Source: a phage. Taken from it: a stretch of DNA of 44,263 nt. Every line of letters begins with the position of its first letter. The stretch's first letter is position 1. The notes below the pieces were generated by a model, which was given only the letters and a program-made list of their open reading frames with translations, was not told where the DNA came from and did not search any database. The position numbers and the translations under genes were made by a program. Below are positions 4,040-40,502 of the stretch, in pieces. The stretch lies in the NCBI GenBank assembly GCA_029038705.1, contig GCA_029038705.1_4346.1; one strand, written 5' to 3'.

Positions 4040-4068
4040 ATAGTAACCTATTATGTTGGGGTGTGCAA
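4040..4068 (-). promoter_or_regulatory. Sigma70-like promoter (TTGCAC-N17-TACTAT) carrying the AATAG-N4-CTATT element
   Basis: Minus strand: TTGCAC, 17 nt, TACTAT. Plus strand reads GTGAATAGTAACCTATTATG. Confidence 0.55.
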
Positions 4069-5154: not shown

Positions 5155-7373
5155 ATATTGTTTTTGCAACGCTGCGTAACACATTCGATAAAAACCCTGT
5201 AGCGCGTGAAATGCCGCTGGAGCAGTTTGTCGAGTATGTCTGCGATACATCGAAGCGTTTATCCGTGGACCCGTCATGGACTAAGGAAGAGTACGACGCT
5301 GCCAAGATTAAACAGAAAGCTATTGCGCCTGTTGGTGGTCGCCGTAAAAACGCTATCCTGGAAGACAGTGTGGTTAAGTTCGATTTCGACCATCTCAACC
5401 GTACTCAGTACCGCGACCTGACACGCAAATTCAAGAACGCGCCGTTCTTCAATATTCTGCACACAACGGCATCGCATCAGCACGCATGTAAAAACGGAGA
5501 TTACGCTTTCCGCGTTCTGGTTCCAGCTCGCACGCCGTTTAACTCTAACGACGCGTGGATGGTGCAACGTGCTATTTGTGCAGAGTTAGAAATAGACGAA
5601 GCGTTGCGCGACCACTGCACAGAAGACGGCAACCGCCTTATCTACCTGCCGCATAAAGAGTCGAAGATAACGGTTACAGAAGGGCGTGTTATCCGTGCTG
5701 AGCGGTACATCAAGAAAGCCGAAGAGATGGGGTTGCGTAAGCGTGAGGCTAAAACACTTGCCGCTGATGAGCATGGGCTTAACGCGGATATAGCACACTT
5801 CTGCGAAGCCGAGCTTGGCCTTGACGCTTTATCTTCCGGGCGCGGGTACGAAGTGCCATGCCCTAACGAACATCTGCATACAGGCAAGGGCTCCACCAGC
5901 ATAATGCTCGACGGTAAAGAAGTGCGCTTTGTCTGCCAGCATACAAACAACGGCGCTTGCACCGAGCTTAACCGTAGGCAGCATTTGGCCCTGCGTATGT
6001 GTGGCCTACCCGACGAGCTTAACATAGATAAGCAACCTATCAGCATTAACAGCATTCGTGCGGCTCTGCCTGATTTACCGGAAGAAGAGATTGAAGAACT
6101 ACACCGCACAGAGAACGAGGACCCAGTAACTTGCAGCCTCGACGACCTGGAAGACGACGAGGACTCAGAGGAGGACGAGTTACCGGAGCCGGTAAAGGCT
6201 GATTTCGTCGTTGAGGGGTACATGCCGTCGGATTGTATCTGGGATATCGTCGGGGAATCTGGCACGTACAAATCGTTCTATACGCTGGGGATGATGTACC
6301 TCAGCGCCGCCGGGTACAGGTTTGCGGGGGCGGATACCCAGCGTTGCCACCATTTCTATATTGATGGTGAGGGTGGCGCAGCTACACGCACCCGTATTGA
6401 TGCACTAGCGGCTAAATATGGCGGGGAAGGTAAAGATTATGTACACGTCATCGATATGGGCGAAGTCGGCAAACTTAAAAGCCTGATTAAGTTAATGCGC
6501 GAAACTGCTGGCGACGAGCCAATTGGCATGGTTGCGTTCGACACCCTTAACCAGACCCTGGCACTGACGATTGATAAGTTCGACGAGAACAGTTCATCAA
6601 CAGCAATCGGCATGGGTAAAGTTATCGCCATTCTGAAAGAAGTACGCGATGCAACTAAAGCCGCAGTAGGCGTTGTCCACCATACGCCGAAGGGTGGAAA
6701 GAAAGCACGCGGCAGTGGGGCGCTGTATGCGGGTGTTGACGTGGAACTGACAATCGAACGTGCAACCGACCGTCAGATAAACGTATATCACTCGAAATTC
6801 AAGCACGGGCCTCAGCAGAAGACGGTTGGCATGGTGCTGGAGTCGGTACAGTTCCGTGAAGCGCCGCCGCCTAAAGAATACCGAGCGGTTGAGTTCCTGG
6901 GTAGCACAGAGGAATACGGCACAATCGTAAACCTGGACCTGCCTGAACCACACAAGGCGCTTGTGTTGATGCCGTGGGGTTTCGAGCCGTTCAAAACTGA
7001 CGAGGAGAAAGAGCGGGAAGAAGGGTTGACGAAAGAAGGTAAGCAAAAAGTAAAGGAAGAAGTTAAACGCGGCAGGGATGAAGTAAGGAAGGAGTCAATA
7101 CTTTCGGCACTGGAAGACCTGCAACAGTCAGATGACACAGGTCGCGGTTTTACTCAGCAGCAGATAGTGGCTCGTTCCGGTGACTTCTCTGTGACTAACA
7201 CCCATCTTGATAAAATGTTGAAAGATGGAGAACTAATGCTTGGTTGCGATGCTAACGGCGAAGTAGTACCGAGAACATATCGTATACCCGAAAGAATAGG
7301 TGATAGATTAAGGCCGAAGACACTATACGAACCAAATGAGATGCTGGTGGTGACAGAGGAGGATTTGGAATAG
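5151..7373 (+). CDS. Replicative primase-helicase-like protein (N-terminal primase-like region, Cys/His cluster, C-terminal RecA/DnaB-type P-loop ATPase)
   Basis: 740 aa. Walker A-like GESGTYKS, Walker B-like VAFDTL, Cys/His cluster CPNEHLHTG...CQHTNNGAC, and a C-terminal acidic/basic tail. Domain assignment is by eye. Confidence 0.65.
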   Translation: MNIVFATLRNTFDKNPVAREMPLEQFVEYVCDTSKRLSVDPSWTKEEYDAAKIKQKAIAPVGGRRKNAILEDSVVKFDFDHLNRTQYRDLTRKFKNAPFFNILHTTASHQHACKNGDYAFRVLVPARTPFNSNDAWMVQRAICAELEIDEALRDHCTEDGNRLIYLPHKESKITVTEGRVIRAERYIKKAEEMGLRKREAKTLAADEHGLNADIAHFCEAELGLDALSSGRGYEVPCPNEHLHTGKGSTSIMLDGKEVRFVCQHTNNGACTELNRRQHLALRMCGLPDELNIDKQPISINSIRAALPDLPEEEIEELHRTENEDPVTCSLDDLEDDEDSEEDELPEPVKADFVVEGYMPSDCIWDIVGESGTYKSFYTLGMMYLSAAGYRFAGADTQRCHHFYIDGEGGAATRTRIDALAAKYGGEGKDYVHVIDMGEVGKLKSLIKLMRETAGDEPIGMVAFDTLNQTLALTIDKFDENSSSTAIGMGKVIAILKEVRDATKAAVGVVHHTPKGGKKARGSGALYAGVDVELTIERATDRQINVYHSKFKHGPQQKTVGMVLESVQFREAPPPKEYRAVEFLGSTEEYGTIVNLDLPEPHKALVLMPWGFEPFKTDEEKEREEGLTKEGKQKVKEEVKRGRDEVRKESILSALEDLQQSDDTGRGFTQQQIVARSGDFSVTNTHLDKMLKDGELMLGCDANGEVVPRTYRIPERIGDRLRPKTLYEPNEMLVVTEEDLE

Positions 7374-7400
7374 GTAAAAAGAAAGGGGCGTTACGCCCCT
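7373..7400 (-). terminator. Terminator between the converging primase-helicase and XRE genes
   Basis: Hairpin AGGGGCG-TTAC-GCCCCT; minus strand is followed by UUCUUUUUACC. Overlaps the XRE stop codon. Confidence 0.5.
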
Positions 7401-7606
7401 TCACCTAGCGCCAGCCACTTGGCGTCTACTTCCAGCACTTCCGCCAGTTTAAACAGCGTTGCCGGGCGTACGTCCTGAGTTACCCCGAGTGCAAGCTGGT
7501 TAATCGCGCCCTGGGAAACGCCGGCCAGAACAGCCAGACGGCGCTGGGAGATACCGAGTTCTTTACGGCGTTGCTCTACACGGATGCCTAGTTCAGATGG
7601 TTGCAT
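7391..7606 (-). CDS. XRE-family (Cro/CI-type) HTH transcriptional regulator
   Basis: 71 aa; ELGISQRRLAVLAGVSQGAINQLALG is the XRE helix-turn-helix pattern. Divergent from the flanking plus-strand genes. Confidence 0.8.
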   Translation of the reverse strand: MQPSELGIRVEQRRKELGISQRRLAVLAGVSQGAINQLALGVTQDVRPATLFKLAEVLEVDAKWLALGEGA

Positions 7607-7626
7607 GTCAGTTACTCCTTAGTCAG

Positions 7627-7655
7627 TTGATATGTGAATAGTACCATATTAATTA
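7627..7655. promoter_or_regulatory. Operator-like copy 1 (GTGAATAGTACCATATTAAT), probably overlapping the leftward promoter of the XRE gene
   Basis: Degenerate copy of the AATAG-N4-CTATT element (second half ATATT), immediately upstream of the XRE gene start. Confidence 0.45.
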
Positions 7656-7670
7656 TTTTAGAAAAGCCCA

Positions 7671-7699
7671 TTGACATGTGAATAGTTCGCTATTATAGT
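7671..7699 (+). promoter_or_regulatory. Sigma70-like promoter (TTGACA-N17-TATAGT) with embedded AATAG-N4-CTATT palindrome
   Basis: TTGACATGTGAATAGTTCGCTATTATAGT; drives the gene at 7728. Confidence 0.6.
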
Positions 7700-7727
7700 T
7701 AGCCCATACCAAACGAGAGGGGCAGAT

Positions 7728-7955
7728 ATGAACACAATCACTGGGGCCATAGCTAAAGGTTTTCGAGCAATTTTCGGCGCTCCGCAAGAAGTGTGCACAA
7801 AACATAAATTTGTACTTTCTTGCGTAGTAGGGGATGAGTTTGATGGGTTCGATAAACTTGTTGTCTGTGACCATTGCGGGCAAGAAGCTATTCAACACTC
7901 AAACGGTAAATTTGAACTAATAGACGATAGCCTTACTGAAGGCGACGGTGAGTAA
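7728..7955 (+). CDS. Hypothetical protein (possible Cys-containing zinc-binding motif)
   Basis: 75 aa; CTKHK...CDHCG; GAGAGGGG RBS upstream. Confidence 0.5.
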   Translation: MNTITGAIAKGFRAIFGAPQEVCTKHKFVLSCVVGDEFDGFDKLVVCDHCGQEAIQHSNGKFELIDDSLTEGDGE

Positions 7956-7979
7956 CTTACACAAACAGGAGAGAAACAA

Positions 7980-10766: not shown

Positions 10767-10795
10767 TTGACACCTGAATAGTTAGCTATTATAGT
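10767..10795 (+). promoter_or_regulatory. Sigma70-like promoter (TTGACA-N17-TATAGT) with AATAG-N4-CTATT palindrome
   Basis: TTGACACCTGAATAGTTAGCTATTATAGT; upstream of the SSB-like gene. Confidence 0.6.
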
Positions 10796-14409: not shown

Positions 14410-14686
14410 AGAGGGCCGCGTACAGAAATACGCAAAAGAGCAATTCGAGGCCATTGGCGGCCTCGTTCGTAAACTTTCGTACGAGGGGCGCTCCGGCGCC
14501 CCTGACCTGCTGGTAATTCTCCCCGGCGGCATCGTCTGGTTCGTCGAGGTGAAGAAAGACGAAAGCACGAAGCCTGACCCACACCAGTTACGAGAGCATG
14601 AGCGGATGCGTAAACGTGGTGCGAATGTTTTTGTCGTCGGGTCGTTCAAACAGGTTGACGACCTAATAGCGAACTATTATAGTTAG
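14399..14686 (+). CDS. VRR-NUC domain nuclease (PD-(D/E)XK)
   Basis: 95 aa; GAPDLLVILPGGIVWFVEVKKD matches the D-x(n)-E-x-K core. Confidence 0.7.
   Translation: MATKEGRVQKYAKEQFEAIGGLVRKLSYEGRSGAPDLLVILPGGIVWFVEVKKDESTKPDPHQLREHERMRKRGANVFVVGSFKQVDDLIANYYS
14655..14683 (+). promoter_or_regulatory. Sigma70-like promoter (TTGACG-N17-TATAGT) with AATAG-N4-CTATT palindrome, inside the 3' end of the VRR-NUC gene
   Basis: TTGACGACCTAATAGCGAACTATTATAGT. Confidence 0.55.
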
Positions 14687-22396: not shown

Positions 22397-23797
22397 TTAG
22401 CCGTCCACATTAAAATCAATACGAGTGATATATTTACTACCCCACGCAGAATCGGCCTGAGGGATAGTCGCGTAATCATCTACAGCCTGAACGTTTATCA
22501 CGGAGCCGTCGGAATAGGTGATGTCGATACTTGTCGCGCCGTTCATTACTACTTTTGCCGATGGCGCTGGGCGTGTTACAGGAGACGCCGACGTAATTAT
22601 TGGTGATGTTGTATTTTGGTTTACCTCTACAGTAGCCGCGGATAATTTAATCCCTGAAACGCCATCCCCCGTAAAGGCTCCGGTAACTCCGTCTGAATAT
22701 ATCCATGCGTCCATCCGTATGCTCATTGTTTTATCTTCTGTCGCGGTGATCGTCTCCGATATTCGGAACCACCCTCCGCCTACGTCGGTTACATCTGTAC
22801 CGCCTGGGCCGGAATAAATGCTACCATCCCGCAAATCAACAACTGCCGAGCCTAATACTGTAGGAAGTTCTCGCACGTACATCCGTATGAAATTGTATCC
22901 GTTTGCTTTTGCGAAGAAACTAAAAGTAACCATGTCGCCAACACCAACGCTAACATCTACAGTCTGGTTTATTAGGTGGTTACCGCTTGCGGCGGTAGCA
23001 GTTACGTCGTACGTGCCAGCGGCTGTTAAAACACCTGTTTCAGATACTGATACACTCACCAAACCTTTGTTCCAGTTTGACGAAGAGAAATTGCTTGAAT
23101 ATAGGAATCTGTTAGTTACTGATACCTCTGGTGGCACGCGCCCGGCGGCAACCCCGTCAATAAACGTAAGAGGCCATTCATTGGCGGCGGACTGTACAAG
23201 ATTACCATTGCGGTTGATGTAATAAACCTGTGGCCCCTCATACACAATGCGGCTATCAAGAGTCGACGCCAGAAGGTTAATCGGCGGATACCCGGCGGGG
23301 CCTTCATTGCTCCAGATGCGAGGGAACGTCGTCTCATAGTTCGCGTATATTTTCAGGAAACTACCCAGACAATCCCCGTAACAGCCGTACAAATCCGGAA
23401 GATTGTTAATCAGGCACTGGTTCTCAAGGTCCTGGAACGGCGATTTCTCGGCGGTTGCTGTGAAGGTAATTGTCCAGTTAATCCCGTCTTCGGTGGACTC
23501 GGCGATAGTGGACGTAATGGTTACCTGATAATCTTCGATGCCCATGCCGAAGTCGTGCGCCATCCAGAAACTTGACGCACCGCCGTCTACTTTTTCGAGG
23601 AACGACAGAAACGCCTGTCGCCCCATTGCGGATGTAATCAGGGTTACGCTCACCGGGAACACGTCGTAATACGTGTCGCGCCCCTGACGTACACCGCCAC
23701 CAGCTAAATCAACGCTCCAGACGTTGTTACGTCTGGTCATCGAGTAGCCTTTCGATACAATTGGCTTAAGGCTACGTGGGAAATATAAGTCGCTCAT
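22397..23797 (-). CDS. Minor/distal tail protein with C-terminal extension
   Basis: 466 aa immediately downstream of the tape measure protein. Confidence 0.5.
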   Translation of the reverse strand: MSDLYFPRSLKPIVSKGYSMTRRNNVWSVDLAGGGVRQGRDTYYDVFPVSVTLITSAMGRQAFLSFLEKVDGGASSFWMAHDFGMGIEDYQVTITSTIAESTEDGINWTITFTATAEKSPFQDLENQCLINNLPDLYGCYGDCLGSFLKIYANYETTFPRIWSNEGPAGYPPINLLASTLDSRIVYEGPQVYYINRNGNLVQSAANEWPLTFIDGVAAGRVPPEVSVTNRFLYSSNFSSSNWNKGLVSVSVSETGVLTAAGTYDVTATAASGNHLINQTVDVSVGVGDMVTFSFFAKANGYNFIRMYVRELPTVLGSAVVDLRDGSIYSGPGGTDVTDVGGGWFRISETITATEDKTMSIRMDAWIYSDGVTGAFTGDGVSGIKLSAATVEVNQNTTSPIITSASPVTRPAPSAKVVMNGATSIDITYSDGSVINVQAVDDYATIPQADSAWGSKYITRIDFNVDG

Positions 23798-25815
23798 TAT
23801 TTGAACCCCGGCGCGTTTCTTGTGGCCTTGCGAGCCTTGCTAATCTTACTGTTGCTGTTCTGCAAAGACGCGGCAACCTGTTCTTCAATGATGATACGCA
23901 AACGGCCCTCATCATCTTGCTCAGTGGATACGTTGCCGATTTGAGAACTCGTGTTGTTTACGATAGTAACATTAGATGGGCCACTATTTCCGCTATTATT
24001 ACCGTTTAACTGCTGCCGTGTTTGACTTGCATTGGTCGCCCTGCCAGAACCCGCCATCTTGATAATCTCAGGGCCGCGTTCACCAACCAGGTAACTACCG
24101 CCAGCGTTCATTTGCCCGCCTTGCTCACGCGCGCCGCTAATCTTGGCGATGTTCGCCACCCCCGCCGCGACAGCCAGACCCGCGGCAACCGGAGCGAGTG
24201 CCGGGCCGACAATTGGAATAGCAGCAGTTGATTTATAGGCTTCGATAGCAGCCGTGTAAGTGGCAATAGTCGCTTGCGTTATGGCGAACGCTTTGTACGC
24301 AGCGGACGTCTCCCCCAGTGCGGATTTAGCATCCGCTGCCATGCTGCCGAATGCGTCGGCGGTGGCGTTGGCTTGTGCAATATTGCTCTGTTCGTTCAGG
24401 TTACGCACTGCATTAGCGTATTCTTCTTCGCTGATTAGTTTCTGTTTAAGGAAATCGTCCAGTTGCTTAAGTTTGGCGTCATTCTGCCGTTGGATTTCCT
24501 CGAACTCTGTGCCACCAAGCGCCTGTAGTTTCTCCAGATATGCATCAGCATTGTTATACAGCGCATCTCGTTGTGCCTGAAACTCCGCCATGATGTCACT
24601 TTTCGACTTCTCGTAGTCAGCGTCGCTTACGAGTTGCTTGTCGTGGAACTCCTGCAATTTAGCCAGTTTCTGTTTCTCTTTGGCGTCTATCCGTTCTAAC
24701 TCTGTTCCGGTGTTTGTGTCTATTTGAGCTATAAACTGGTCTGCGGCTTTCTGTGCGCTTTCCTGCGCGCGAGCGTCGGCGCGGGCTTGAGCATCTGCTC
24801 GTTTCTTAGCTGCGGCAGCGATACGATTCTGCCTGTCTATTTCCTTCTGTGCCCTGTCCGCCTTATCCTTTTCATACGTCTTCTCAGATTGCTCTACCCC
24901 TTTTCGCTCGGCTGCGCGGGTCTTTTCCTCCACACCAAGGTAGTTAAGTTCATTTCGCAGTTTATTTATTTCCATCTGCGCTTCTGGCGTTTTGGCGTTT
25001 ATGCCGTCCAGGTAGGCGACCAGCCCTTCTCGAGCTCCAGGAACCCCAGCTGCGATTGCTTTCTGAGCAACTTCAATACTGCGTAACTCTTTGGCGGTCA
25101 ACCCCGCCGCTTCCGCAGCGGATTCGTACTGGAAAGCCACGGCCCCGGCAGCGTCCCCGCCTTGGGCTATCTGTGATGCGGCAAGGTTGGTGGTCAACTT
25201 CTGAAACAGAGATTGGGCTTTTGTTACCTTATCAATAGCTTCAACAATCTTATCTGCGGTGGAGTTAGCCTGTATGGCGGTTGCCTCTAGTGCCTTATTA
25301 AGAAATGCCATCTTCTCCGCTGTTGTTGCCCCGACAGCGTCCAGTTTTTCCAGTGCGTCATTCATGTCATACACACCGGGTGTGGCCTCATTAAGAGCGT
25401 CATCAAGGAACTTAGTAGCTTCCTCCAGTTGTTTAGCGGTATCCGTTGAGTTACTCAAAGACGCGTACAGCGCGCCGCCGATTACGGTGGCGATAGTCAA
25501 TACCGTGCCCGCAATTGGATTGAATGCGGACACTAACTGACTACCTTGTTGCGTGAAAGCCGTGAGGGCGGACTGCCCCCCTTGGATTTGTACGATAAAG
25601 TCCTGTACCTGATACCCAGCATTACCTATTGACGCCCGCATCGCGTTCATCTTCGGGGTTGCCGCGGAGGTGGTGTCCGTTAGTTTCTTTGTGCTGGAAT
25701 CCGCTTTCCCAGCGGAACTACTAAGGTTATCTAACTGCTTTGCTGCTTGCTCCGCTCCAGTTGCCTGGACTCGCACCATTAAACTCGCGGTATCAGCCAT
25801 TATAATCGTCCTCAT
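23797..25815 (-). CDS. Tail tape measure protein
   Basis: 672 aa; long Ala/Gln/Lys/Glu-rich coiled-coil core, C-terminal hydrophobic/Gly-rich segment (IVGPALAPVAAGLAVAAG...GERGPE). Confidence 0.8.
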   Translation of the reverse strand: MRTIIMADTASLMVRVQATGAEQAAKQLDNLSSSAGKADSSTKKLTDTTSAATPKMNAMRASIGNAGYQVQDFIVQIQGGQSALTAFTQQGSQLVSAFNPIAGTVLTIATVIGGALYASLSNSTDTAKQLEEATKFLDDALNEATPGVYDMNDALEKLDAVGATTAEKMAFLNKALEATAIQANSTADKIVEAIDKVTKAQSLFQKLTTNLAASQIAQGGDAAGAVAFQYESAAEAAGLTAKELRSIEVAQKAIAAGVPGAREGLVAYLDGINAKTPEAQMEINKLRNELNYLGVEEKTRAAERKGVEQSEKTYEKDKADRAQKEIDRQNRIAAAAKKRADAQARADARAQESAQKAADQFIAQIDTNTGTELERIDAKEKQKLAKLQEFHDKQLVSDADYEKSKSDIMAEFQAQRDALYNNADAYLEKLQALGGTEFEEIQRQNDAKLKQLDDFLKQKLISEEEYANAVRNLNEQSNIAQANATADAFGSMAADAKSALGETSAAYKAFAITQATIATYTAAIEAYKSTAAIPIVGPALAPVAAGLAVAAGVANIAKISGAREQGGQMNAGGSYLVGERGPEIIKMAGSGRATNASQTRQQLNGNNSGNSGPSNVTIVNNTSSQIGNVSTEQDDEGRLRIIIEEQVAASLQNSNSKISKARKATRNAPGFK

Positions 25816-26062
25816 TACGGCCTTCGAACAGTGCGTCTAGGCCCATTATTAAGTCTACCTCAAGCAACGAGAACGGCTGTTTATGCAACTCTGCGTACGC
25901 TGTAAGGTGGTGATATTGGAGCATTTCCCTTGGTATTAGCACATTATTGCGGCTTACAAACTTCAATGCGTAGTATTTATCCATTATTTTCATCATATCG
26001 CTCGGGCATTCCGGCGGGGTTTCCTCAGGCTCCTTCGGTACAGGTAACCCCATAGCCGCCAT
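25793..26062 (-). CDS. Tail assembly chaperone, T-like downstream ORF
   Basis: 89 aa between the G-like chaperone and the tape measure. Its frame is open about 39 codons upstream of the ATG and is -1 relative to the preceding ORF. Confidence 0.4.
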   Translation of the reverse strand: MAAMGLPVPKEPEETPPECPSDMMKIMDKYYALKFVSRNNVLIPREMLQYHHLTAYAELHKQPFSLLEVDLIMGLDALFEGRNEDDYNG

Positions 26063-26151: not shown

Positions 26152-26568
26152 CTACTTTACAGATAAAGCTTTGCGGCTCTCAGCATGGTGTTGAGCGACA
26201 GCCCCTCCCAACCCTTTATACTCCTTCAACAGCTTGACCAACGCTTTCTTAGTGAACTTCTCCTCGAAGGACCACCCTACAACAACAACGGCAGCAAGTG
26301 CATCGTTAAGTTTAGCCAATTCACTGTTTAATTCCGTGTTATAGCGCGCCCAGTCCCCTTTCTCGCGGCACTCCGCGTCGAGCGGTTTCAGGCGGTCAAG
26401 GATGTCGCGGTAAGCGGAGATAAAATCCTTAGCTGCGGCGATTGAGTCGTCGCAGTCAGGCCCCATCACCTGCAACCACTCCCCTGAGTCACTGCCGTCC
26501 GGTAGCAGGATAGGCATCTTAGTTCCCGCAGCGTGGCGGGACGCGAAATAAAAATCAGAAAGTTTCAT
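26152..26568 (-). CDS. Tail assembly chaperone (gpG-like)
   Basis: 138 aa, acidic; canonical position between the major tail and tape measure genes. Confidence 0.5.
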   Translation of the reverse strand: MKLSDFYFASRHAAGTKMPILLPDGSDSGEWLQVMGPDCDDSIAAAKDFISAYRDILDRLKPLDAECREKGDWARYNTELNSELAKLNDALAAVVVVGWSFEEKFTKKALVKLLKEYKGLGGAVAQHHAESRKALSVK

Positions 26569-26677
26569 TCTTTAATCCTTTGGTTAAGAGGTTGTTGGTT
26601 AAAGAGAAATGCACCAGGCGGTAACCAACCGCTTTTCGTGCGCGACACTAGGTGCAAAATTATTCTAACACACTACT

Positions 26678-26706
26678 TGCACACCCCAATATAATAGGGT
26701 ACTATT
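26678..26706 (+). promoter_or_regulatory. Sigma70-like promoter (TTGCAC-N17-TACTAT) with AATAG-N4-CTATT element, driving the plus-strand cassette
   Basis: TTGCACACCCCAATATAATAGGGTACTAT; same architecture as the minus-strand early promoters at 2431 and 4040. Confidence 0.55.
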
Positions 26707-26745
26707 CACTTACACCAACGTTATTAACTTAAATAAGGAATTAAA

Positions 26746-27072
26746 ATGCGTAAATTAATCATAGCCATGGGTCTTATTTCTTTTTGCGCGGTAGGGTCCC
26801 AGTGTGAGCAAGTATATAGTGAAACCCCTTTAGTAACTTCCGGGGTGCTTGATTCAGCCCCTCCGTCTGCCGTTAGTGCGTTTAAAACCGCTGCTATTCG
26901 CGAATGTAATGCTGCCGTGCGCGCTGGCGGGTCTGGCCTTGGTCTTGAATTGATGACATCCCTTGTTGTTGAGTCTGTAGATGTTAACAGCCCCACTTTC
27001 AGCAGCCTACTGTTAGCCACTCGTTTGCAAATGGTTACAACCGGATGGTCAATAGGCGCAGAAAGTAAATAG
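26746..27072 (+). CDS. Hypothetical small secreted protein (N-terminal signal peptide)
   Basis: 108 aa; MRKLIIAMGLISFCAVGSQC signal-like start (no canonical lipobox); AAGGAA RBS. The antisense ORF 26724..27020 is judged spurious. Confidence 0.45.
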   Translation: MRKLIIAMGLISFCAVGSQCEQVYSETPLVTSGVLDSAPPSAVSAFKTAAIRECNAAVRAGGSGLGLELMTSLVVESVDVNSPTFSSLLLATRLQMVTTGWSIGAESK

Positions 27073-27137
27073 TTGCCTTTATTTAAAGGAATGCACTGTG
27101 GTTAAATAGGACAAATCCTAAACACGAGGAAATAGGC

Positions 27138-28292
27138 ATGGCCCAGAAGAAAATAACCGACGAACAGTTACAGGAAGAATTGAACGCTGGGATGAAGAAT
27201 ATCGACATTGCTCGTAAATACGGCATCTCAGACCGCGTTATTCGTATCCGTAAAGCGAAACTAGCGAAGAAAGGCGTAGGCCACGGGCGTGACGTTAGCC
27301 ACCTTGTGCCGGACGGCTACAAGATTAAGGGTACATCGTCTCTGGTTGATGAGTTAGGCAACACTAAACTGCAATGGGTTAAGACCGACACCGATGCGGA
27401 ACGTCAGGTCGAGTTAATGAAAGCCGTTGTGGACGAGATGAAAAAAGATTTACCCAAGTATAAGCCAGTCACTTTGGCCAAAAATGGGACAGATGACGAC
27501 TTATTAAATCTTTACACAATAACAGACCATCACATAGGGATGTTGGCGTGTCAAGAAGAAGGCGGGGATGATTACGACACCACAATCGCGGAATCTCTCG
27601 CGGTTGACTGGTTCAACAGTGCGGTTTGTATGAGTCCACAGAGTGGTGAATGTATCATTAACTTCTTAGGGGACCAAATGCACTACGACGGCATGAAGGC
27701 AATGACCCCTATGAGCGGTCATATTCTTTCAGCGGATAGTCGCCTGTTTAAAATGATACGCACGGCCATTAAGGTTATCAAGCTGGCTGTCTCACTGTGC
27801 TTGCGAAAACACAAGAAGGTTAAACTTCTTATCTGTGAAGGTAACCACGACCTTAGTTCTTCTCTGTGGCTCCGGGAGATGTTCTACGAGGTATACACAA
27901 ATGAGCCTCGCGTCGAGGTTAACCGGGAGGTGTCACCGTATTATGCGTACAAGTTCGGGGATTGTATGATTTCAGCACATCACGGGCATTGTTCTAACTT
28001 TGCTAAGGTAGAGCAGGCTATAATCGGTAAGTACCGGGAGATGTACGGGCGGTGTAAGTTCACATATGTCCATACGGGGCACCTCCATCACAGGGCGGTT
28101 AAAGAGACTAATCTGCTAATTGTTGAGCAACACCAGACATTAGCGGCTAAAGATGAGTATTCTAGTAAGGGCGGCTATTATTCAGGTAGAAGCGCAAATG
28201 TGATTACATACCACAAACGTTACGGGGAGGTGTCCCGCATAAGTATACCTGTCGAAATGCTGCGAGACATAAACCCAAAATCGACATACTAA
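27138..28292 (+). CDS. HTH domain fused to a calcineurin-like metallophosphoesterase
   Basis: 384 aa. N-terminal NIDIARKYGISDRVIRIRKAKL (HTH-like). Phosphoesterase motifs in canonical order: TDHHIG, GDQMHYDG, EGNHD, HHGH, HTGHLHH. Confidence 0.65.
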   Translation: MAQKKITDEQLQEELNAGMKNIDIARKYGISDRVIRIRKAKLAKKGVGHGRDVSHLVPDGYKIKGTSSLVDELGNTKLQWVKTDTDAERQVELMKAVVDEMKKDLPKYKPVTLAKNGTDDDLLNLYTITDHHIGMLACQEEGGDDYDTTIAESLAVDWFNSAVCMSPQSGECIINFLGDQMHYDGMKAMTPMSGHILSADSRLFKMIRTAIKVIKLAVSLCLRKHKKVKLLICEGNHDLSSSLWLREMFYEVYTNEPRVEVNREVSPYYAYKFGDCMISAHHGHCSNFAKVEQAIIGKYREMYGRCKFTYVHTGHLHHRAVKETNLLIVEQHQTLAAKDEYSSKGGYYSGRSANVITYHKRYGEVSRISIPVEMLRDINPKSTY

Positions 28293-28307
28293 AATATAGG
28301 TGAAAGT

Positions 28308-28808
28308 ATGGATTGGAGTGAGGTTTTTAGCTACAAAAATGGCGTCCTATACTGGAAAGTCAAATCATGTCGCCGTAACGATGTGAATATAGGTGATGTG
28401 GCCGGGAGTTTGTGTAAAAACGGCTATTGGTATGTCATGTTTGGTAACCGTAAGTTTAAAAGGTCGAGGGTGGTGTATGAGATGTTCTCAGGTAAGATTC
28501 CAAAAGGATTTGTCATAGACCATACTAACCATGATACCTGTGACGACAGAATTGAAAACCTGTCATGCAAATCTAGAAGGGACAACATGGTTAACGTGAA
28601 AAGGCGCAAAGATAATACCTCTGGAGTTACGGGTGTGGCGCGGAAAGGAAAAACTAAGTGGAGAGCTTATGCCGTTGTCAACGGTAAGCAGATTAGTAAA
28701 ACATTTGACAGAATAGAGGACGCTTTCGCTGAAAGAATTTACATGTCTGTGGCTAATAGGTTTCACATAAATCATGGACTGACAACATTCAACAACGGTT
28801 ATAAATAG
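28308..28808 (+). CDS. HNH homing endonuclease with AP2-like domain (paralogue of 13912..14409)
   Basis: GFVIDHTNHDTCDDRIENL...(HNH) and SGVTGVARKGKTKWRAYAVVNGKQISKTF (AP2-like). Confidence 0.8.
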   Translation: MDWSEVFSYKNGVLYWKVKSCRRNDVNIGDVAGSLCKNGYWYVMFGNRKFKRSRVVYEMFSGKIPKGFVIDHTNHDTCDDRIENLSCKSRRDNMVNVKRRKDNTSGVTGVARKGKTKWRAYAVVNGKQISKTFDRIEDAFAERIYMSVANRFHINHGLTTFNNGYK

Positions 28809-28817
28809 GGTGTAGAG

Positions 28818-29111
28818 ATGACTTCAAAATACAACCGCACAATGACAAACACTCACGGCAGCACCATGACAGTAGACGTTTATGATGTGCTCCGTGCTTT
28901 CGATATCCGTGACCCGGCGCTACAGCATGCGTTAAAGAAGTTATTGTGCATGGGCTTGCGCGGACACAAGGACACCGGAACCGACTTAGCAGAAGCAATT
29001 GAAAGTCTGGAGAAGTTACGGGAATACCGAAGCAATATTGATGAGTTAAAATATTATGAAAACAATATATGTAATCCGAGTATACGACGAAGAATGGGAC
29101 GAGTGGGTTGA
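28818..29111 (+). CDS. Hypothetical protein
   Basis: 97 aa ORF. An overlapping alternative 53 aa ORF (29056..29217) exists; the true 3' end is uncertain. Confidence 0.4.
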   Translation: MTSKYNRTMTNTHGSTMTVDVYDVLRAFDIRDPALQHALKKLLCMGLRGHKDTGTDLAEAIESLEKLREYRSNIDELKYYENNICNPSIRRRMGRVG

Positions 29112-29213
29112 TATTTATGCCGTTAGTAGTAAGGAAGAGGCCTCTAAAGAAATGACAGAACGAAGGGACCGAGGCCAGTTAACTAACTTCTACGAAATGC
29201 CGTTCAAAAGTGA

Positions 29214-29248
29214 GTAAGAAAAGGCCCCTTTCGGGGCCTTAGTTTTAT
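29214..29248. terminator. Bidirectional terminator between the plus-strand cassette and the major tail gene
   Basis: AAGGCCCC-TTTC-GGGGCCTT with T-rich flanks on both strands. Confidence 0.6.
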
Positions 29249-30417
29249 GCGTAACTAATACGTTGAATTACGATAGACGACTGATACTGGTTGCCTGTGG
29301 ACTGCCCTTCTATACTTTGGGTAATTGACTCAGGCCCGCCAATCTCAGGTGTAACCGCCGTGAGTTCTGCGCGTTTCAAACTAAAAGACATAGCCCCGTT
29401 TACCCCCGCCAGAATAGAGTTAATCTCCACCTGCTGTTCGTTGATAAACTTCTGAATCATAGCCATGTCGTACAGCTTGCCGGAGATGGAGAAGGTGTTA
29501 GCCGCGCGGCTACGTTCCACAAACGCTACGTTAGTGTTGCCGAGTTCGAACTGCGCCGACGCGCTGTTGTCGTTGGTGATGGTCAGGCTGTCGCAACGCA
29601 ACGGCGTAGAACCGTCGAACACAGAAACATCGACCGAGGAGAATGGCTCGGCACCAAACGTAACAGAGGAGAAATCAGAACCAGACGGCTGCGTGGTGAG
29701 AATCTCCTGACTGCGACCGATGAACGGGAAGCTGCCAGTTACCATCGCGTTAACAGCCTGTTCGATGGTAAAACCAGAAACTTCCACGCCTTTGGTTAAC
29801 GTGTACGCGTCAGTACCGCCGCACTGGCCTTTGTACCAGGTAAGGATAGAGAACGTCTTACACGCGTTACCGGTTTCCAACGTGTCGCCAGTTTTAGCCT
29901 TACTAGTTTTTGTCTCGGTGGTCAGGGTGTGTTGGATGCCCGCACCAGTAACAACCGTAGCCTTTACTGCAGTAACAATAAATGGTTTTGCGTTATCGCC
30001 TGTTAAATCGGTAAACGCAATCAGGTCGCCTACCCCAACTCCGTCAGTGATAAAACTGCCGGTAGCGCGTGTGAACGTCTTGCCCGCGGGTGCGACGGTA
30101 ATCGATAGTCCTGACAGGGAAACGCCGGATTGCCACGTAGAGCCTAAAGCCCCGGCTAACCAGTCGTCCTGACTTTTAGAGCTAAGCTCAATAGCGTATT
30201 CTCCGCTAACCTGCTTGTTACCGGTGCGGATGGATGTGGTTTCTCGGCTGCCGTCAAGTTCGTTGGAGGTCAGCGTGTCGCGGGTAATGGCAGGAACGCC
30301 GCCCGTGTTGCGCAACGGCGACCATACCGGGTTAGCCGGTGTTACGCCCGGGGTAGTTTCTGCCACATAGAATTGCGCAGTATTCGCGCCCTTAAAAGGA
30401 GTTGTAGCCATATTCAC
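29245..30417 (-). CDS. Major tail (tube) protein
   Basis: 390 aa, Thr/Ser/Gly-rich; positioned between connector genes and chaperones. Confidence 0.6.
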   Translation of the reverse strand: MNMATTPFKGANTAQFYVAETTPGVTPANPVWSPLRNTGGVPAITRDTLTSNELDGSRETTSIRTGNKQVSGEYAIELSSKSQDDWLAGALGSTWQSGVSLSGLSITVAPAGKTFTRATGSFITDGVGVGDLIAFTDLTGDNAKPFIVTAVKATVVTGAGIQHTLTTETKTSKAKTGDTLETGNACKTFSILTWYKGQCGGTDAYTLTKGVEVSGFTIEQAVNAMVTGSFPFIGRSQEILTTQPSGSDFSSVTFGAEPFSSVDVSVFDGSTPLRCDSLTITNDNSASAQFELGNTNVAFVERSRAANTFSISGKLYDMAMIQKFINEQQVEINSILAGVNGAMSFSLKRAELTAVTPEIGGPESITQSIEGQSTGNQYQSSIVIQRISYA

Positions 30418-36006: not shown

Positions 36007-36468
36007 TTATTCTGGCTTAGTGACCTTCGCCGCTTTGCTGACAGCCTCTACACCATCGGCATCAGTAACTTTAACGAAGTATTCCCCAACAGAATTAACC
36101 GTCAGATACAAAGCCTCTTCCGGGGCGTTAACCACTTCCTTCCCGTCTTTGTACCAGGTCAGCGCATATGGTGCTTTGCCCGCCTTAACTTCGACAGCGA
36201 TATTTGCGCTGCCGTCTGCCAGTTCAGCGTCCTGCGGTTGTACGGAGAAATACACATCACCAGCATCCGCCAGGTACTGAATCTCATAAAGCATGCCCGC
36301 CGCCGGTAGCGCAATACCGGTTTTATCTGCAAACGGCATATCGTCTACGGGCGCACCCAGTACACTTTCATCTTCAATAAATACCACGTTCTCGCCGGAG
36401 CCAGGCACACGGGCGTACTGGACTACGCGACGCGACGGTACATCAGTTACTTTGAAAAAGCCCATCAT
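36007..36468 (-). CDS. Ig-like domain protein
   Basis: 153 aa; ALTWYKDGKEV...VGEYFVKVTDADG is an Ig-like pattern. Confidence 0.5.
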   Translation of the reverse strand: MMGFFKVTDVPSRRVVQYARVPGSGENVVFIEDESVLGAPVDDMPFADKTGIALPAAGMLYEIQYLADAGDVYFSVQPQDAELADGSANIAVEVKAGKAPYALTWYKDGKEVVNAPEEALYLTVNSVGEYFVKVTDADGVEAVSKAAKVTKPE

Positions 36469-37544
36469 TATTCCCCTTTCAGATAATCAGCAACACGTTT
36501 ATCGAGTTCCGCCATCTGCTTAAGCGTGAGCGGATTCCCGAAACCATCTACAGATATTACGCGAAACTCTTCCGGCGATATACCGCTGTTACGGAAAATC
36601 TTACCCCGCACCGGGCCTAGAGCCTGGTCCTGAAACCATGCCGGTTGTTGTTTCAGGAACTCGTAGTAAGTGGTGTCTGCGCTTACCTGAGTACCTCCGT
36701 CCGCACCCTTAGCCGCGCGTTTTGCGCCTTTATCCAGGAAGTCGAACTCCGAACTGATTACCGGAGCCGTGCACGACCGGCAGTTCGGATGGGCGGGGGG
36801 CATCGGCCCTTTACCGATTTCCCACGTCATCCCATCTCTGGCCTTGCAAACGGCTGAGGTCCTAGAATCAAGAGTAGACACCCACTCATATTTCTCGATA
36901 ATGTCGTCGTTCTGGCGGTACGTCTCATTACGGGCTTCGTTGGACACGTGGGACAGCGCGGTGCGGATTACTGTAGCAGCGTGTTTCTCTGATACGTCAG
37001 CCAGGCCGCCTTTACCAACTACTTCTTTAACAATCTGCCGTGTGGTTTGGCCTTGCACAAAGCCCATCTTAACGCCAGTTACAAGGCGCGCGACCTCCGC
37101 TTCACCCCAGCCTGACATCAGCTTGGTGAAGTCAACGGGCTTGTCACTTAGCGACAGAGGTTGAAACTCGGCAGCGGCCCACACCTGCTCGGCGGTAGGT
37201 GTAACAAATTCCGCGTTAACGTTGGTGGTAAGTGTCTTTACGTTCCACTCAGCCTCATATGCCGCCAGTTCCTTAAGGTCTTCTGTCAGCTTTGTTTGCC
37301 AGTCAACTGTAAGTCCAGCCAGTGCTTCTTCAAGGTCGCGTAACAGTTTATTCAGCCGGGCGGTGCTGCGGCCATCATCGCCGAATAACAGCACCTGCCG
37401 TTTGATTTCGTCCCGCATCTCCTGAATGAACGGTGCTAGGTCTTTCACCTCACCGGATGCAGTACGTTGCAGCCATATCTGGTGGCTAATTAGAGATGTA
37501 AGTAAGCTCATAAGCCCTCCTGTAGTATCGACAGTGTAACGCAT
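36468..37544 (-). CDS. Head morphogenesis protein (Mu F / SPP1 gp7-like)
   Basis: 358 aa; VSTLDSRTSAVCKARDGMTW...PPAHPNCRSCTAPV matches the MuF-family Cys/His motif; position after portal. Confidence 0.7.
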   Translation of the reverse strand: MRYTVDTTGGLMSLLTSLISHQIWLQRTASGEVKDLAPFIQEMRDEIKRQVLLFGDDGRSTARLNKLLRDLEEALAGLTVDWQTKLTEDLKELAAYEAEWNVKTLTTNVNAEFVTPTAEQVWAAAEFQPLSLSDKPVDFTKLMSGWGEAEVARLVTGVKMGFVQGQTTRQIVKEVVGKGGLADVSEKHAATVIRTALSHVSNEARNETYRQNDDIIEKYEWVSTLDSRTSAVCKARDGMTWEIGKGPMPPAHPNCRSCTAPVISSEFDFLDKGAKRAAKGADGGTQVSADTTYYEFLKQQPAWFQDQALGPVRGKIFRNSGISPEEFRVISVDGFGNPLTLKQMAELDKRVADYLKGE

Positions 37545-37647
37545 AAAAATAATATCTCAGGGAATTTTTTCTTATTGCGGTGCGATGTCTTGCTGTGGTA
37601 CATGTATATACACAATCTTTATACTAGAAGAAGCGGAGGGTATTTTA

Positions 37648-38997
37648 ATGGGGTCCAGACGTTTAACTGAAGAAGATGTAAACCTGAGACTGGCGTCACG
37701 GGGTATAGTAGTAATTGAGTATGCAGGCCACTCTAAACTTAAGTCTAAATTCCGCTGCCGTAGTGGCCATGTGTGGGAGACAAAGGCCAATACCGTCCTA
37801 AACGGTCATGGTTGCCCCCAATGCTACGCTGCGGAAAAACGGGCGAAAGTAACAGAGTGGCCTAATGGGGTTGAATGCCTTAATTACGCAGGTGCTGTAA
37901 GTGGGAAATCAACGTTCAGATGTAAATGCGGGTTCGTCTGGTCCGCTACCGGCAGCGACATTTTAAGGGGTAAAAGTCATTGCCCGAATTGCAGCACTAA
38001 CAGAAAAAGGCTCGAGATCGGAGAAATAGAGGAAAGGTTACGCGGCACTGGTTTTGAACTGGTGTCTTATTCAGGGGATATCTGCCGTGCGCCATCGACA
38101 CTGAGGTGTCAAAAAGGCCATGAATGGGCCTCTACGCTTGGTAACATTTTTCAGGGTAGAGGGTGCCCGCGGTGCGCGTCGTTCGGGCGTAGTAAAGTGG
38201 AGGATGAAGTCTGTGAATTTCTCGATAGCATGGGGGTGGAATATCATCGGAATGATAGAAGTCTTATCCACCCAAGAGAGATAGATATTTTAATACCGCA
38301 ACATAATCTGGCGATAGAAATAAACGGCCTGTACTGGCACAGTGAAGCTGCCGGGAAGGGGAGAAAGTATCACATGGAGAAAAGAGTCGCCGTTGAGGAA
38401 AGAGGGTTCAGGCTCCTGTCAATAAGGGATGAGCTATGGCTGCATAAAAAAGAAATAATAAAGAAAATAATCGGCCATTCCGTCGGCGTCTCTTCTTTGC
38501 GAGTTTTCGCCCGCAAATGCCATGTAAAAGAGATTAACAAAATATGTGCAGAGCGTTTCCTGGAGGAGAACCACATTCAAGGATTCCGTAACTCGACGAG
38601 GTATATCAGCCTCGTTTATGAAGAAAAGATTGTTGCGGTAATGACGCTGACGTGTAGAAAAGGTGAATGGGAGCTTGTGCGGTACGCTACGTCGTGTTCG
38701 GTGGTAGGCGGGCTGTCGAAGCTATGGGCCTATGCCGTGCGCCGTTATAGCATCACCGACGGTTTTACCTACACTGACCGGGATTTATTTACCGGAGAAT
38801 CATACCTATCAGCGGGGTTTAAAAAGGCTTCTGTGAGATGTGGATTCCGCATCGTCGTAAACAATGCGACTAAAACAGAATCACGGCAAAAATGGAACAA
38901 AGCGCCAGAGGGGCTTACACAGTCGGAATGGTACGCTGCGGAAGGTGTATCCCGCATATGGGATAGCGGACAAGAGAAATTGGTATGGAATAAGTGA
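37648..38997 (+). CDS. Stand-alone nuclease with repeated zinc-ribbon modules and a PD-(D/E)XK-like core (homing-endonuclease-like)
   Basis: Three repeats of a C-x-x-G/C-H...CPxC module (CRSGHVWET..CPQC; CKCGFVWSA..CPNC; CQKGHEWAS..CPRC), then REIDILIP...AIEINGLYWHS. Start is probably the ATG at 37648 (GGAGGG RBS), not 37585. Confidence 0.55.
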   Translation: MGSRRLTEEDVNLRLASRGIVVIEYAGHSKLKSKFRCRSGHVWETKANTVLNGHGCPQCYAAEKRAKVTEWPNGVECLNYAGAVSGKSTFRCKCGFVWSATGSDILRGKSHCPNCSTNRKRLEIGEIEERLRGTGFELVSYSGDICRAPSTLRCQKGHEWASTLGNIFQGRGCPRCASFGRSKVEDEVCEFLDSMGVEYHRNDRSLIHPREIDILIPQHNLAIEINGLYWHSEAAGKGRKYHMEKRVAVEERGFRLLSIRDELWLHKKEIIKKIIGHSVGVSSLRVFARKCHVKEINKICAERFLEENHIQGFRNSTRYISLVYEEKIVAVMTLTCRKGEWELVRYATSCSVVGGLSKLWAYAVRRYSITDGFTYTDRDLFTGESYLSAGFKKASVRCGFRIVVNNATKTESRQKWNKAPEGLTQSEWYAAEGVSRIWDSGQEKLVWNK

Positions 38998-39026: not shown

Positions 39027-40502
39027 TTACTCCTGCTGTTGCTGCTGCGCCGACTGCGGAATCTCCCCCGTCACCTGAGTAACGGCCCCCAACGGCAATG
39101 GTGCATCCTCGATAGCGTTCTGAATGTCTTCATCCTTCCAGTCAGTTACACCCGCCTTGCGCAACGCAGCATAGTAAGCGGTGGCGGGCAGCAAGCCAGC
39201 GTTAATGTCCGCCATCCACTGGGCGCGGTCCTGAGCTGTCATCGGTTGTAGGAAGAACTCCATGTTCAGCTTGAATTCAATCTCTGTGTCTTCGCGCAAC
39301 CCTAGCATCGCCGCTACCCAGCGCAATGCATCGGTATACGCCATGCTTACGTTACGCGCGATTGTTGCCATGACTGACGTATCGGCGCCGCGTTGCAGGC
39401 GGGCGGATTCGGCGGTGATTTGCTGCGTCGGGGTGATAAGCTGCGCGCCAATCTGAATGGCCTGATTCTCTTTATCCAGCATATTCTGTTTGGCGAGGTT
39501 GTTCTCTCCTGCCTGAACAAGAAATGCATTGCCGCCGTAGCCGATGTTATGGCCTGAACGTGACCCCATGCGCACGCCGTGAGGGTTAGCTTCTTTCCAC
39601 TGTTCCATGCTCATGTTCTCACCGGGGGCGATGAACAGAGTTGGCTGGCCTACAACGAAGCTGGATTCCTCATTGTCTGCGCTGTTACGGAAATGTCCGA
39701 TATTAAGCTCAGCCAACGGCAGCAAAGGCGCATCGTCGATAGTAGCGTCGTTGTTGCTTGCACCAATGAACGTGAACGGGATTTTGCCACGTAACTGTTC
39801 GCCGAGTTCCGGGAAGATTTCGATTACTTCACCCTGTGCGCCACCTTCTGCGTCAAAGCGGTAAATGCGCTGACGGTAGCGACCGTCAATCAAATCGAGA
39901 ACGCGGTATTGCTCACCGAACTTTGTTTCGAACTCTGCGCCCGGTTCTGAGTATTCCCATACCTCACGCAATACAACCATCGTCACGCGGTTAACTGAAC
40001 CGACGCGAGTCAGTCGCCAGTTGATGATGTTCTCTGCGGTATAGAAAGCGATGACCGGGTTTAATAACCCCGCGTTCTGCTCTGCCGCCGTTGCCGCGGC
40101 GGTCTCCGGGGCGTCAACCAGCAACCCACCACGGCCCACCGAGTCAATCTCCATCAGCGTGTCCTGCGCGTGCTGCCACAGACCAACACCGGAGCCGTCG
40201 ACATTACGTAACAGGTACTCCAGTTCAGGCGGGATAATCTGCTCGGGGTCTTTGCGCATCACGGACCCAACCATCCCCGCCAGGGTACGTTTAGTAAAGT
40301 TGTAGCAGATAGCGCCGTTCTCGTATTCTTCCTGACGCTGTGCCGCGTAGGTCGGGTCTGGTTCGTTCTTCCCGACGTTGCGCAGGTAACGGATAAGGTC
40401 GCCTTCCAGCGCGTGGCGTACCTTCTGCCATTTATTGAAGTGATGCAGCCATTCCCGGTGTTTAGTCTTAACACCCTGATTCTGACCGTTCATAGTTAAC
40501 AT
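39027..40502 (-). CDS. Portal protein
   Basis: 491 aa, immediately downstream of TerL; acidic Gln-rich C-terminus. Assigned by size and synteny. Confidence 0.65.
   Translation of the reverse strand: MLTMNGQNQGVKTKHREWLHHFNKWQKVRHALEGDLIRYLRNVGKNEPDPTYAAQRQEEYENGAICYNFTKRTLAGMVGSVMRKDPEQIIPPELEYLLRNVDGSGVGLWQHAQDTLMEIDSVGRGGLLVDAPETAAATAAEQNAGLLNPVIAFYTAENIINWRLTRVGSVNRVTMVVLREVWEYSEPGAEFETKFGEQYRVLDLIDGRYRQRIYRFDAEGGAQGEVIEIFPELGEQLRGKIPFTFIGASNNDATIDDAPLLPLAELNIGHFRNSADNEESSFVVGQPTLFIAPGENMSMEQWKEANPHGVRMGSRSGHNIGYGGNAFLVQAGENNLAKQNMLDKENQAIQIGAQLITPTQQITAESARLQRGADTSVMATIARNVSMAYTDALRWVAAMLGLREDTEIEFKLNMEFFLQPMTAQDRAQWMADINAGLLPATAYYAALRKAGVTDWKDEDIQNAIEDAPLPLGAVTQVTGEIPQSAQQQQQE

Follow-up and report, generated by a model that had tools for sequence, protein, structure and literature searches.

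An antisense cassette at the tail-gene junction of a Kagunavirus-like phage: conserved position and core, exchangeable neighbors

Gene clusters that run antisense to the surrounding tail genes have been described in several phages of the subfamily Guernseyvirinae, namely Ent3 (gp20-24), K1H (ORF15-18), Golestan (gp19-22), and XY1. Here we analyze the corresponding 2.5-kb plus-strand unit (positions 26677-29240) of a 44,263-nucleotide phage contig, GCA_029038705.1_4346.1 (referred to below as the window). Flanked by two minus-strand genes, those of the tail assembly chaperone and the tail tube, the unit shares with the described clusters the junction, the orientation, the promoter region, the terminator, and a core gene encoding a helix-turn-helix (HTH)-metallophosphoesterase (MPE); it differs from them in its combination of genes, in the allele of its first gene, sp108, and in a diverged chaperone and tape measure. 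Phage T1 possesses a homologous HTH-MPE, ST16 (40% identity), with a homologous HNH endonuclease, ST15, directly downstream, and Weberviruses display the order MPE, Pnkp phosphatase, kinase, with the same Pnkp partners as in Kagunavirus. In T1 and Webervirus, these genes are co-directional and placed at the end of an early/replication operon beside the lysis genes, whereas in the window they are antisense within the tail module. We propose that the unit is a Guernseyvirinae tail-junction cassette, autonomous and antisense, which probably belongs to the inherited architecture of the subfamily rather than being a recent insertion.

A megablast search with positions 26500-29300 returned 387 phage records, nearly all Salmonella or Escherichia siphoviruses of the Guernseyvirinae; the Escherichia phages BUCT823 and vB_EcoS_XY1 (Kagunavirus) are the closest, and Jerseyviruses match at ~92%. 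Judged by sequence, the window is a Kagunavirus-like Guernseyvirinae phage. The same layout, a minus-strand chaperone gene, then the first position of the cassette (slot 1), the MPE gene and further genes on the plus strand, and finally a minus-strand tail tube gene, was observed in 30 of 30 Guernseyvirinae-type loci, and the MPE gene was always present. These loci are the window, the Kagunaviruses XY1, Golestan, and K1H, the Jerseyviruses Ent3, EnJE1, CTH7, and SGPC, 21 loci from IMG/VR, and one Logan contig. IMG/VR holds 60 loci that encode relatives of the MPE, and all 21 with Guernseyvirinae tail genes have the layout. Record counts in the phage collection, 353 for Imm-type proteins and 99 for sp108, the two occupants of slot 1, versus ~494 records whose tail tube is ≥60% identical, agree with the general presence of the unit at the tail junction. 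Position, orientation, promoter class, terminator, and HTH-MPE core are conserved in all relatives examined, and the surrounding genes are exchangeable.

A comparable unit is found outside these loci. Shewanella phage 3/49 has a tail tube 63% identical to that of the window, a different replication module, and no MPE anywhere in its genome; its tube/chaperone junction carries a two-gene antisense unit (S349_35 and S349_36; L014 7210-7781) that encodes a 60-aa protein with a single transmembrane segment, in first position, and a 129-aa protein. This unit is preceded by a promoter-like sequence, TTGCAC-N17-TATTGT, and closed by a bidirectional terminator by the tail tube gene. In a more distant Vibrio relative, the junction is uninterrupted. 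Together, the synteny of the relatives and the Shewanella outgroup unit indicate that the slot is old and inherited. The closest metagenomic relative, Logan contig L076 (SRR27405695), has an extra 210-aa gene (7333-7965, minus strand) between the cassette and the tail tube gene, which suggests that the junction keeps accepting insertions. The MPE family itself (phrog_704) occurs in 2012 phage records, among them Guernseyvirinae, T1 and other Drexlerviridae, Dhillonvirus, Webervirus, Jedunavirus, and Vibrio and Rhodobacter phages, and this distribution is that of a core gene, not of a moron. Outside the Guernseyvirinae, the gene is co-directional with its neighbors and lies at the end of an early/replication operon, near lysis or terminase genes.

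The initial annotation had proposed a different origin, a recently acquired moron or accessory island for host takeover, anti-defense, or superinfection exclusion. Like lambdoid morons, the unit lies between two structural genes, is flanked by its own promoter and terminator, and has a somewhat lower G+C content (44.6% for the cassette versus 50.3% for the genome, with 40.9% for the HNH, 46.6% for the MPE, and 48.3% for the sp108 gene), which would fit some horizontal input and counts to that extent against inheritance; gene content also differs among relatives, where slot 1 is usually of the Imm type. Lambdoid morons, however, are present or absent among close relatives, whereas this unit and its largest gene, the core MPE, occupy the same junction in every locus, with only single genes inside the unit varying. 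The outgroup has an analogous unit, and PADLOC detects nothing but the homing endonuclease. A gene order conserved in relatives had been named at the outset as the observation that would argue against acquisition, and it is the order that the synteny comparison returned: in the relatives, the chaperone-to-tube junction is not normally uninterrupted. For the unit as a whole, recent acquisition is refuted by synteny and appears highly improbable to us. Accessory behavior is confined to slot 1 (sp108 or Imm), the HNH gene, and the downstream small genes, all of them exchangeable, and does not extend to the MPE or to the whole unit. The statement that nothing ties the unit to a described system also had to be abandoned, the arrangement being annotated in hundreds of deposited genomes with a slot 1 usually of the T4 Imm type (PF14373). 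A self-contained antisense block in a tail operon looks foreign and is easily misread as such, yet here it is most likely an inherited feature of the subfamily. As Kagunaviruses and Jerseyviruses are used in therapy, in biocontrol, and as synthetic-biology chassis, knowing which cassette genes are dispensable has practical value.

The left border of the cassette is formed by a divergent tail assembly chaperone gene (26152-26568, minus strand; PF08748, phrog_15027), beyond which lie the genes of a second tail assembly chaperone (25793-26062, minus strand; PF23812) and of the tape measure (23797-25815, minus strand). The convergent gene of the tail tube, or major tail protein, forms the right border (29245-30417, minus strand; PF18906, 9.4e-40). 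The open reading frames and these flanks agree with the first description of a plus-strand cassette interrupting minus-strand tail genes. Its bidirectional terminator was recovered as a hairpin scoring on both strands, and its promoter of early-gene type as a motif class, one base off the position first given. Among the products, the signal-peptide protein, the MPE (its putative HTH part through weak matches), and the HNH endonuclease were confirmed, whereas the unit ends with two small open reading frames instead of one, and the AP2 part assigned to the endonuclease was not recovered: no AP2 domain was matched by Pfam in the HNH protein even at E ≤ 10; the C-terminal sequence pattern looks AP2-like. 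The chaperone of the window shows 43-57% amino acid identity to those of other Guernseyvirinae, and the tape measure protein 37-58% (672 aa versus ~779 aa in XY1, Ent3, and Golestan), as compared with 89-98% for the tail tube in Kagunavirus-type loci. Because chaperone and tape measure are far more diverged than the tail tube, the cassette appears to sit at a module boundary. The short tape-measure type of the window is also present in L076.

The cassette promoter, TTGCAC-N17-TACTAT (26677-26705, plus strand), belongs to a motif class common with two sites on the minus strand, 4068(-) and 2459(-). The extended motif of 29-36 nt, TTGCACAC...ATA.AATAGG.TACTATTCAyTTA, has exactly these three copies in the window, with 0 expected from 100 shuffles. 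The copies at 4068(-) and 2459(-) head a leftward small-gene operon, presumably early, beside the replication module; in XY1 and Ent3 the motif also precedes the cassette, and XY1 has it in its early region as well. The designation "early-gene type" is supported by these sequences as a common motif class, not as expression timing. At the other end, the bidirectional intrinsic terminator (29221-29240), common to the cassette on the plus strand and the tail tube gene on the minus strand, consists of an 8-bp stem with six G-C pairs, has a predicted ΔG of -16 to -18 kcal/mol (z -3.0 to -3.9), and scores on both strands; the hairpin is the same in L016 and L019. With its own promoter and terminator, the cassette thus has the features of a real self-contained transcription unit. 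Just upstream of the promoter, a structured stretch (26610-26656, plus strand), made up of a GGCGGT/ACCGCC hairpin followed by TTTT, contains a terminator-like match (26639-26656), folds at -18.3 kcal/mol (z -2.6), is kept in XY1 and Ent3, and may insulate the cassette from plus-strand transcription. A minus-strand promoter-like site, TTGGGG-N16-TAGAAT (26663-26689), stands back-to-back with the cassette promoter; its -10 element is kept in XY1 and weaker in Ent3, and it could drive the chaperone/tape-measure operon.

Such an arrangement of signals might itself be the main function of the cassette, with convergent transcription and the shared hairpin setting the proportion of tail tube to downstream tail proteins and the timing of tail gene expression, and with gene content of secondary importance. 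In favor of this possibility, an antisense unit with a bidirectional terminator exists even in Shewanella phage 3/49, where the genes are unrelated, and the only minus-strand promoter candidate for the chaperone operon is the TTGGGG-N16-TAGAAT site, which is not a strong one. The strong purifying selection on the MPE, which is found outside tail modules as well, and the uninterrupted junction of the distant Vibrio relative speak against it, leaving a purely regulatory cassette with a low probability.

T4-type free-standing homing endonucleases of the Seg and Mob groups cause marker exclusion and co-conversion of the sequences next to them. The cassette encodes a comparable protein, a free-standing HNH homing endonuclease of 166 aa (28308-28808, plus strand; PF13392 (HNH_3), 6.1e-16; phrog_99, 1.4e-49; HEase in PADLOC), which, unlike the GIY-YIG Seg enzymes, belongs to the HNH_3 family. 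Like Seg and Mob, it lies between conserved genes, shows a presence/deletion/scar polymorphism, and is linked to flanking alleles, all of which is known from sequence. The HNH gene is 64% identical at the nucleotide level to T1 ST15, which likewise follows the MPE gene of T1; a comparison of the HNH protein with PDB sequences gave no match. Several segments of different affinity can be distinguished along the cassette. The chaperone start and the promoter (26544-26743) are of Kagunavirus type (~90%), and the following sp108 segment (26744-27105) does not match XY1, Golestan, or Ent3 at the nucleotide level; all three have Imm at slot 1. The MPE gene and the start of the HNH gene (27106-28487) are 98.7% identical in nucleotide sequence to XY1, and an overlapping segment with the MPE catalytic domain, the HNH gene, and the gp21-like gene (27261-29046) is 92.5% identical to that of the Jerseyvirus Ent3; from 29062 on, the final small gene p53, the terminator, and the tail tube gene are again of Kagunavirus type.

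This mosaic structure extends into the MPE gene. Its HTH part tracks the genus, with 94-95% identity within genera and 75-79% between them, while the catalytic domain exists as two alleles, A and B, which are only 49% identical to each other, each of them occurring in the two genera with 97-98% identity; the Dhillonvirus copy shares 88% identity with allele B. The MPE of the window is a chimera of a Kagunavirus-type HTH part and an A-allele catalytic domain. HNH genes of the window type occur only beside allele A, and the allele-A loci that lack them are not empty: 12 codons from the start and three from the end of the HNH gene persist, and the deletion junctions are of at least three kinds. 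In L018, L023, L020, and L017, nothing but the two ends of the gene is left, and the junctions differ. Occupied and degenerate HNH alleles are thus found between homologous flanks, as expected of a homing endonuclease, and the pattern of presence, deletion, and scars, together with the allele linkage, fits a homing-endonuclease life cycle with co-conversion of the flanks. The selfish HNH would cut HNH-less relatives during co-infection, and repair would copy the HNH gene with its flanks. Such HNH-driven copying could account for the 1.8-kb Jerseyvirus-type tract (27261-29046) in a Kagunavirus backbone, which the sequence comparisons suggest is best explained by endonuclease-driven gene conversion. 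The locus would represent a clean natural case of homing-endonuclease turnover, with gain, cross-genus co-conversion of a neighboring enzyme domain, deletion, and scars. The combination of sp108, allele-A MPE, full-length HNH, gp21-like gene, and p53 is a new mosaic, not encountered among the loci examined. In XY1, the gene GT371_00011 (L001 4603-5166), annotated as a calcineurin-like phosphoesterase, appears as a recombination scar in which residues 1-61 of the HNH protein are joined through a shared "EMFS" to the C-terminal 130 residues of a Golestan-type MPE (100% identity), so that XY1 has one and a third MPE genes.

The MPE gene (27138-28292, plus strand; 384 aa; phrog_704, 1e-150) belongs to a family shared by ~2000 sequenced phages, T1 included, to which the sources examined assign no function. 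Its five motifs, DxH (D130/H132), GD (G178/D179), GNH (G235/N236/H237), H (H282), and GHxH (G314/H315/H317), do not vary among 14 sequences, the most distant at 30% identity. In an AlphaFold2 model (pLDDT 70), the protein gave Mre11 (4tug, 1.6e-6) as its top Foldseek match, with a probability of 1.0 for Mre11, Rv0805, MJ0936, GpdQ, and Vps29; PolD DP1 was also matched. The motifs and the fold are held in common with Mre11/SbcD, the Pseudomonas putida MPE, and the mycobacteriophage protein A10ZJ24 gp48, the last an early phage gene. The protein differs from Mre11/SbcD in the lack of a Rad50/SbcC partner (none is listed in the XY1 annotation, and no open reading frame of the window encodes a large coiled-coil ATPase) and has no significant sequence match to solved MPEs; in addition to what the nuclease MPEs have, it bears an N-terminal HTH and a β-hairpin module. 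The HTH assignment is weak and comes from repeated low-scoring matches of the first ~50 residues to LuxR, FixJ, and Lrp-type HTH modules, always at the same residues. One close homologue has a precomputed PF12850 match, and a second profile search of a large protein database retrieved close relatives only. The P. putida MPE cuts single-stranded DNA into mixed 3'-PO4 and 3'-OH ends (PMC7826289), and A10ZJ24 gp48, expressed early, degrades host DNA (PMC12287305). In view of these two precedents, a nucleic-acid phosphodiesterase or nuclease would be the most economical reading of the cassette MPE. The anti-Tmn protein of Dhillonvirus, considered as a possible relative, was ruled out: it is small, rod-shaped, and unrelated.

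An enzyme of this kind might act chiefly in anti-defense, either by early degradation of host DNA that silences defense genes, as with gp48, or by hydrolysis of cyclic-nucleotide immune signals. The promoter of a class read as early, the intact and strongly conserved catalytic site, a fold resembling both nucleases (Mre11) and cyclic-nucleotide phosphodiesterases (Rv0805), and the gp48 precedent (PMC12287305) would all be compatible with such a role. Conversely, no sequence relationship to gp48 emerged, no comparison aimed at one having been made; a DNA-binding HTH is unexpected in a small-molecule phosphodiesterase, the near-universal presence of the gene in several phage groups is a better fit to core DNA metabolism than to an arms race, and Kagunaviruses stay sensitive to restriction-modification and Old systems (bioRxiv 10.1101/2024.09.12.612763). 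We consider a primary anti-defense function rather unlikely.

The genes found next to the MPE in relatives offer another explanation, in which the cassette is at root a module that repairs damage done by the anticodon nucleases or other ribonucleases of the host, in the manner of T4 Pnkp, and is degraded in the window. In bacterial Pnkp, the MPE domain removes 2',3'-cyclic phosphate, and this chemistry is in line with such a module. The order MPE, HAD_PNKP phosphatase (PF25109), P-loop kinase is indeed conserved across Kagunavirus (K1H and Golestan), Webervirus (Roth09), and a T1-like contig (L022), and XY1 also has the Pnkp-type phosphatase and the P-loop kinase. The pair is missing from the window, where the HNH gene, the gp21-like gene, and p53 take its place, and from most Jerseyviruses, yet the MPE is always kept; moreover, the XY1 annotation contains no ligase gene, and the kinase profile is nearer to dNMP kinases (phrog_139). 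There is accordingly only a slim chance that the cassette originated for repair.

The occupant of slot 1 is a T4 Imm-type protein (PF14373) in most relatives and otherwise sp108, encoded in the window by a gene of 108 codons (26746-27072, plus strand; phrog_14165, 1.8e-33). The protein is predicted to be secreted: it has a signal peptide and, throughout the family alignment, two invariant cysteines (C20 and C54), along with the conserved blocks CEQIFSET and GW.IGAE. The window allele is at most 60% identical to the copies in GenBank phages, and metagenome copies reach 87-98% identity. Among 1.84 billion proteins, the family has 12 cluster representatives, three of which are very long multi-stretch matches and probably spurious; six representatives were checked, and their contigs do not exceed 44 kb. 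The slot 1 protein of XY1 matches PF14373 (7.7e-14), and sp108 is without the Imm_superinfect domain. Scans of nine members of the sp108 family gave no Pfam family, and the annotation of one GenBank record as DUF3718 was not reproduced by them. In ~350 relatives, slot 1 is taken by T4 Imm-type proteins; sp108 shares this first position and the targeting to the envelope, but has no sequence similarity to Imm and is predicted to be secreted rather than membrane-embedded. We regard sp108 as a small phage-restricted secreted family that alternates with Imm, and as a reasonable candidate for a new exclusion factor.

These elements can be assembled into a tentative mechanism. Host RNA polymerase would read the cassette as an autonomous unit, its promoter firing together with the 4068(-) and 2459(-) copies that head the operon read as early. 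Late tail transcription, running from right to left, would then converge on the cassette and be attenuated at the shared hairpin. The slot 1 product, sp108 with a probable disulfide bond or elsewhere an Imm-type membrane protein, would act at the cell envelope, most likely to exclude superinfecting phages. The HTH-MPE, a presumed metal-dependent nuclease or phosphodiesterase, would have nucleic-acid ends or host DNA as its substrate and, in many relatives, the split Pnkp-type 3'-phosphatase and P-loop kinase would heal 3'-phosphate and 5'-OH ends.

Several observations weigh against this scheme. The promoter hexamers match the σ70 consensus at only 7 of 12 positions, and for this reason the promoter is missed by a generic σ70 scan. 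In the one RNA-seq study of a relative, Kagunavirus K1B4, the Imm gene was classed as peaking "late," in a coarse design with a multiplicity of infection of 100, sampling to 120 min, and a latent period of 30 min (PMC12645636); in that study, the Imm gene alone is mentioned, with nothing usable on the MPE, and the PhageExpressionAtlas paper mentions no related phage. The envelope and exclusion role of slot 1 is deduced from position and localization signals, and the AlphaFold2 model of sp108 (pLDDT 52) is unusable. The MPE had no Metallophos match in Pfam (PF00149/PF12850) at E ≤ 0.1, and PDB sequences yielded no MPE to either the single sequence or a profile of 14 sequences; its model confirms the superfamily fold, an α/β sandwich, at the level of a generic match that does not designate a subfamily. 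Finally, as the window lacks the Pnkp genes, the end-healing rationale does not directly apply to it.

A bolder version would make the cassette an "infection-establishment" module with an antisense timer, switched on while only the host polymerase reads such promoters and off when late tail transcription collides with it; the HTH-MPE, as a DNA-targeted nuclease, would disable the host chromosome or defense expression, and sp108 would be a new family of secreted exclusion proteins. If so, sp108 would have replaced Imm in about one-fifth of the subfamily. We find this extension doubtful.

Downstream of the MPE, relatives vary in their content: HNH, a second HNH type, the gp21-like gene, Ant/Roi, the Pnkp pair, and p53 are all found there. 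The gp21-like gene (28818-29111, plus strand; phrog_2452, 1.4e-36) is 97 codons long in the window. Its 76-aa core ends at 29045; 774 phage records contain it as a small gene in its own right. The TAA stop of the core is lost in the window (29040-29111), which reads GATGAGTTAAAA in place of the GATGAGTAAG of relatives (L016 and L030), and the gene continues for 21 codons, overlapping the following 53-aa reading frame out of frame; this stop loss may be genuine or may stem from a sequencing error. The idea of a kinase or ATPase remnant, prompted by PHROG hits to the C-terminal ends of longer profiles, was rejected, the protein having no similarity to the XY1 kinase and being encoded by a free-standing gene in its other records. 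The overlapping frame, p53 (29056-29217, plus strand), gave no family match in Pfam or PHROG scans. It has amino acid matches of 91-92% in L030 and L069, all differences from L030 in the aligned start being synonymous, and is the last gene before the terminator in some Kagunaviruses.

In the XY1 annotation, a long minus-strand block begins with small genes read as early and continues with the lysis, terminase, head, and tail genes; the replication block is on the plus strand, as are a few islands within the structural block. The window has a second antisense gene in its structural block, encoding a 470-aa HNH/homing endonuclease (37585-38997, plus strand; phrog_559, 5.5e-98; phrog_3339, 1.6e-75) and flanked by a head gene (36468-37544, minus strand) and the portal gene (39027-40502, minus strand); XY1 has no gene at this head/portal junction. 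Just upstream of the 4068(-) promoter, a strong σ70-like promoter, TTGAAA-N18-TATAAT (11/12), opens a minus-strand region (4389-4141) with ~220 nt of non-coding, highly structured sequence (minimum free energy -70.8 kcal/mol, z -4.1) and a terminator at 4160-4141. This region is a candidate small RNA or leader; the Rfam scan of the window, this region included, gave zero matches. A further promoter class, TTGACAnnTGAATAGTTnGCTATTATAGT, seems to serve the replication genes, with near-identical plus-strand copies at 7671-7699, 10767-10795, and 14655-14683, spaced through the replication module.

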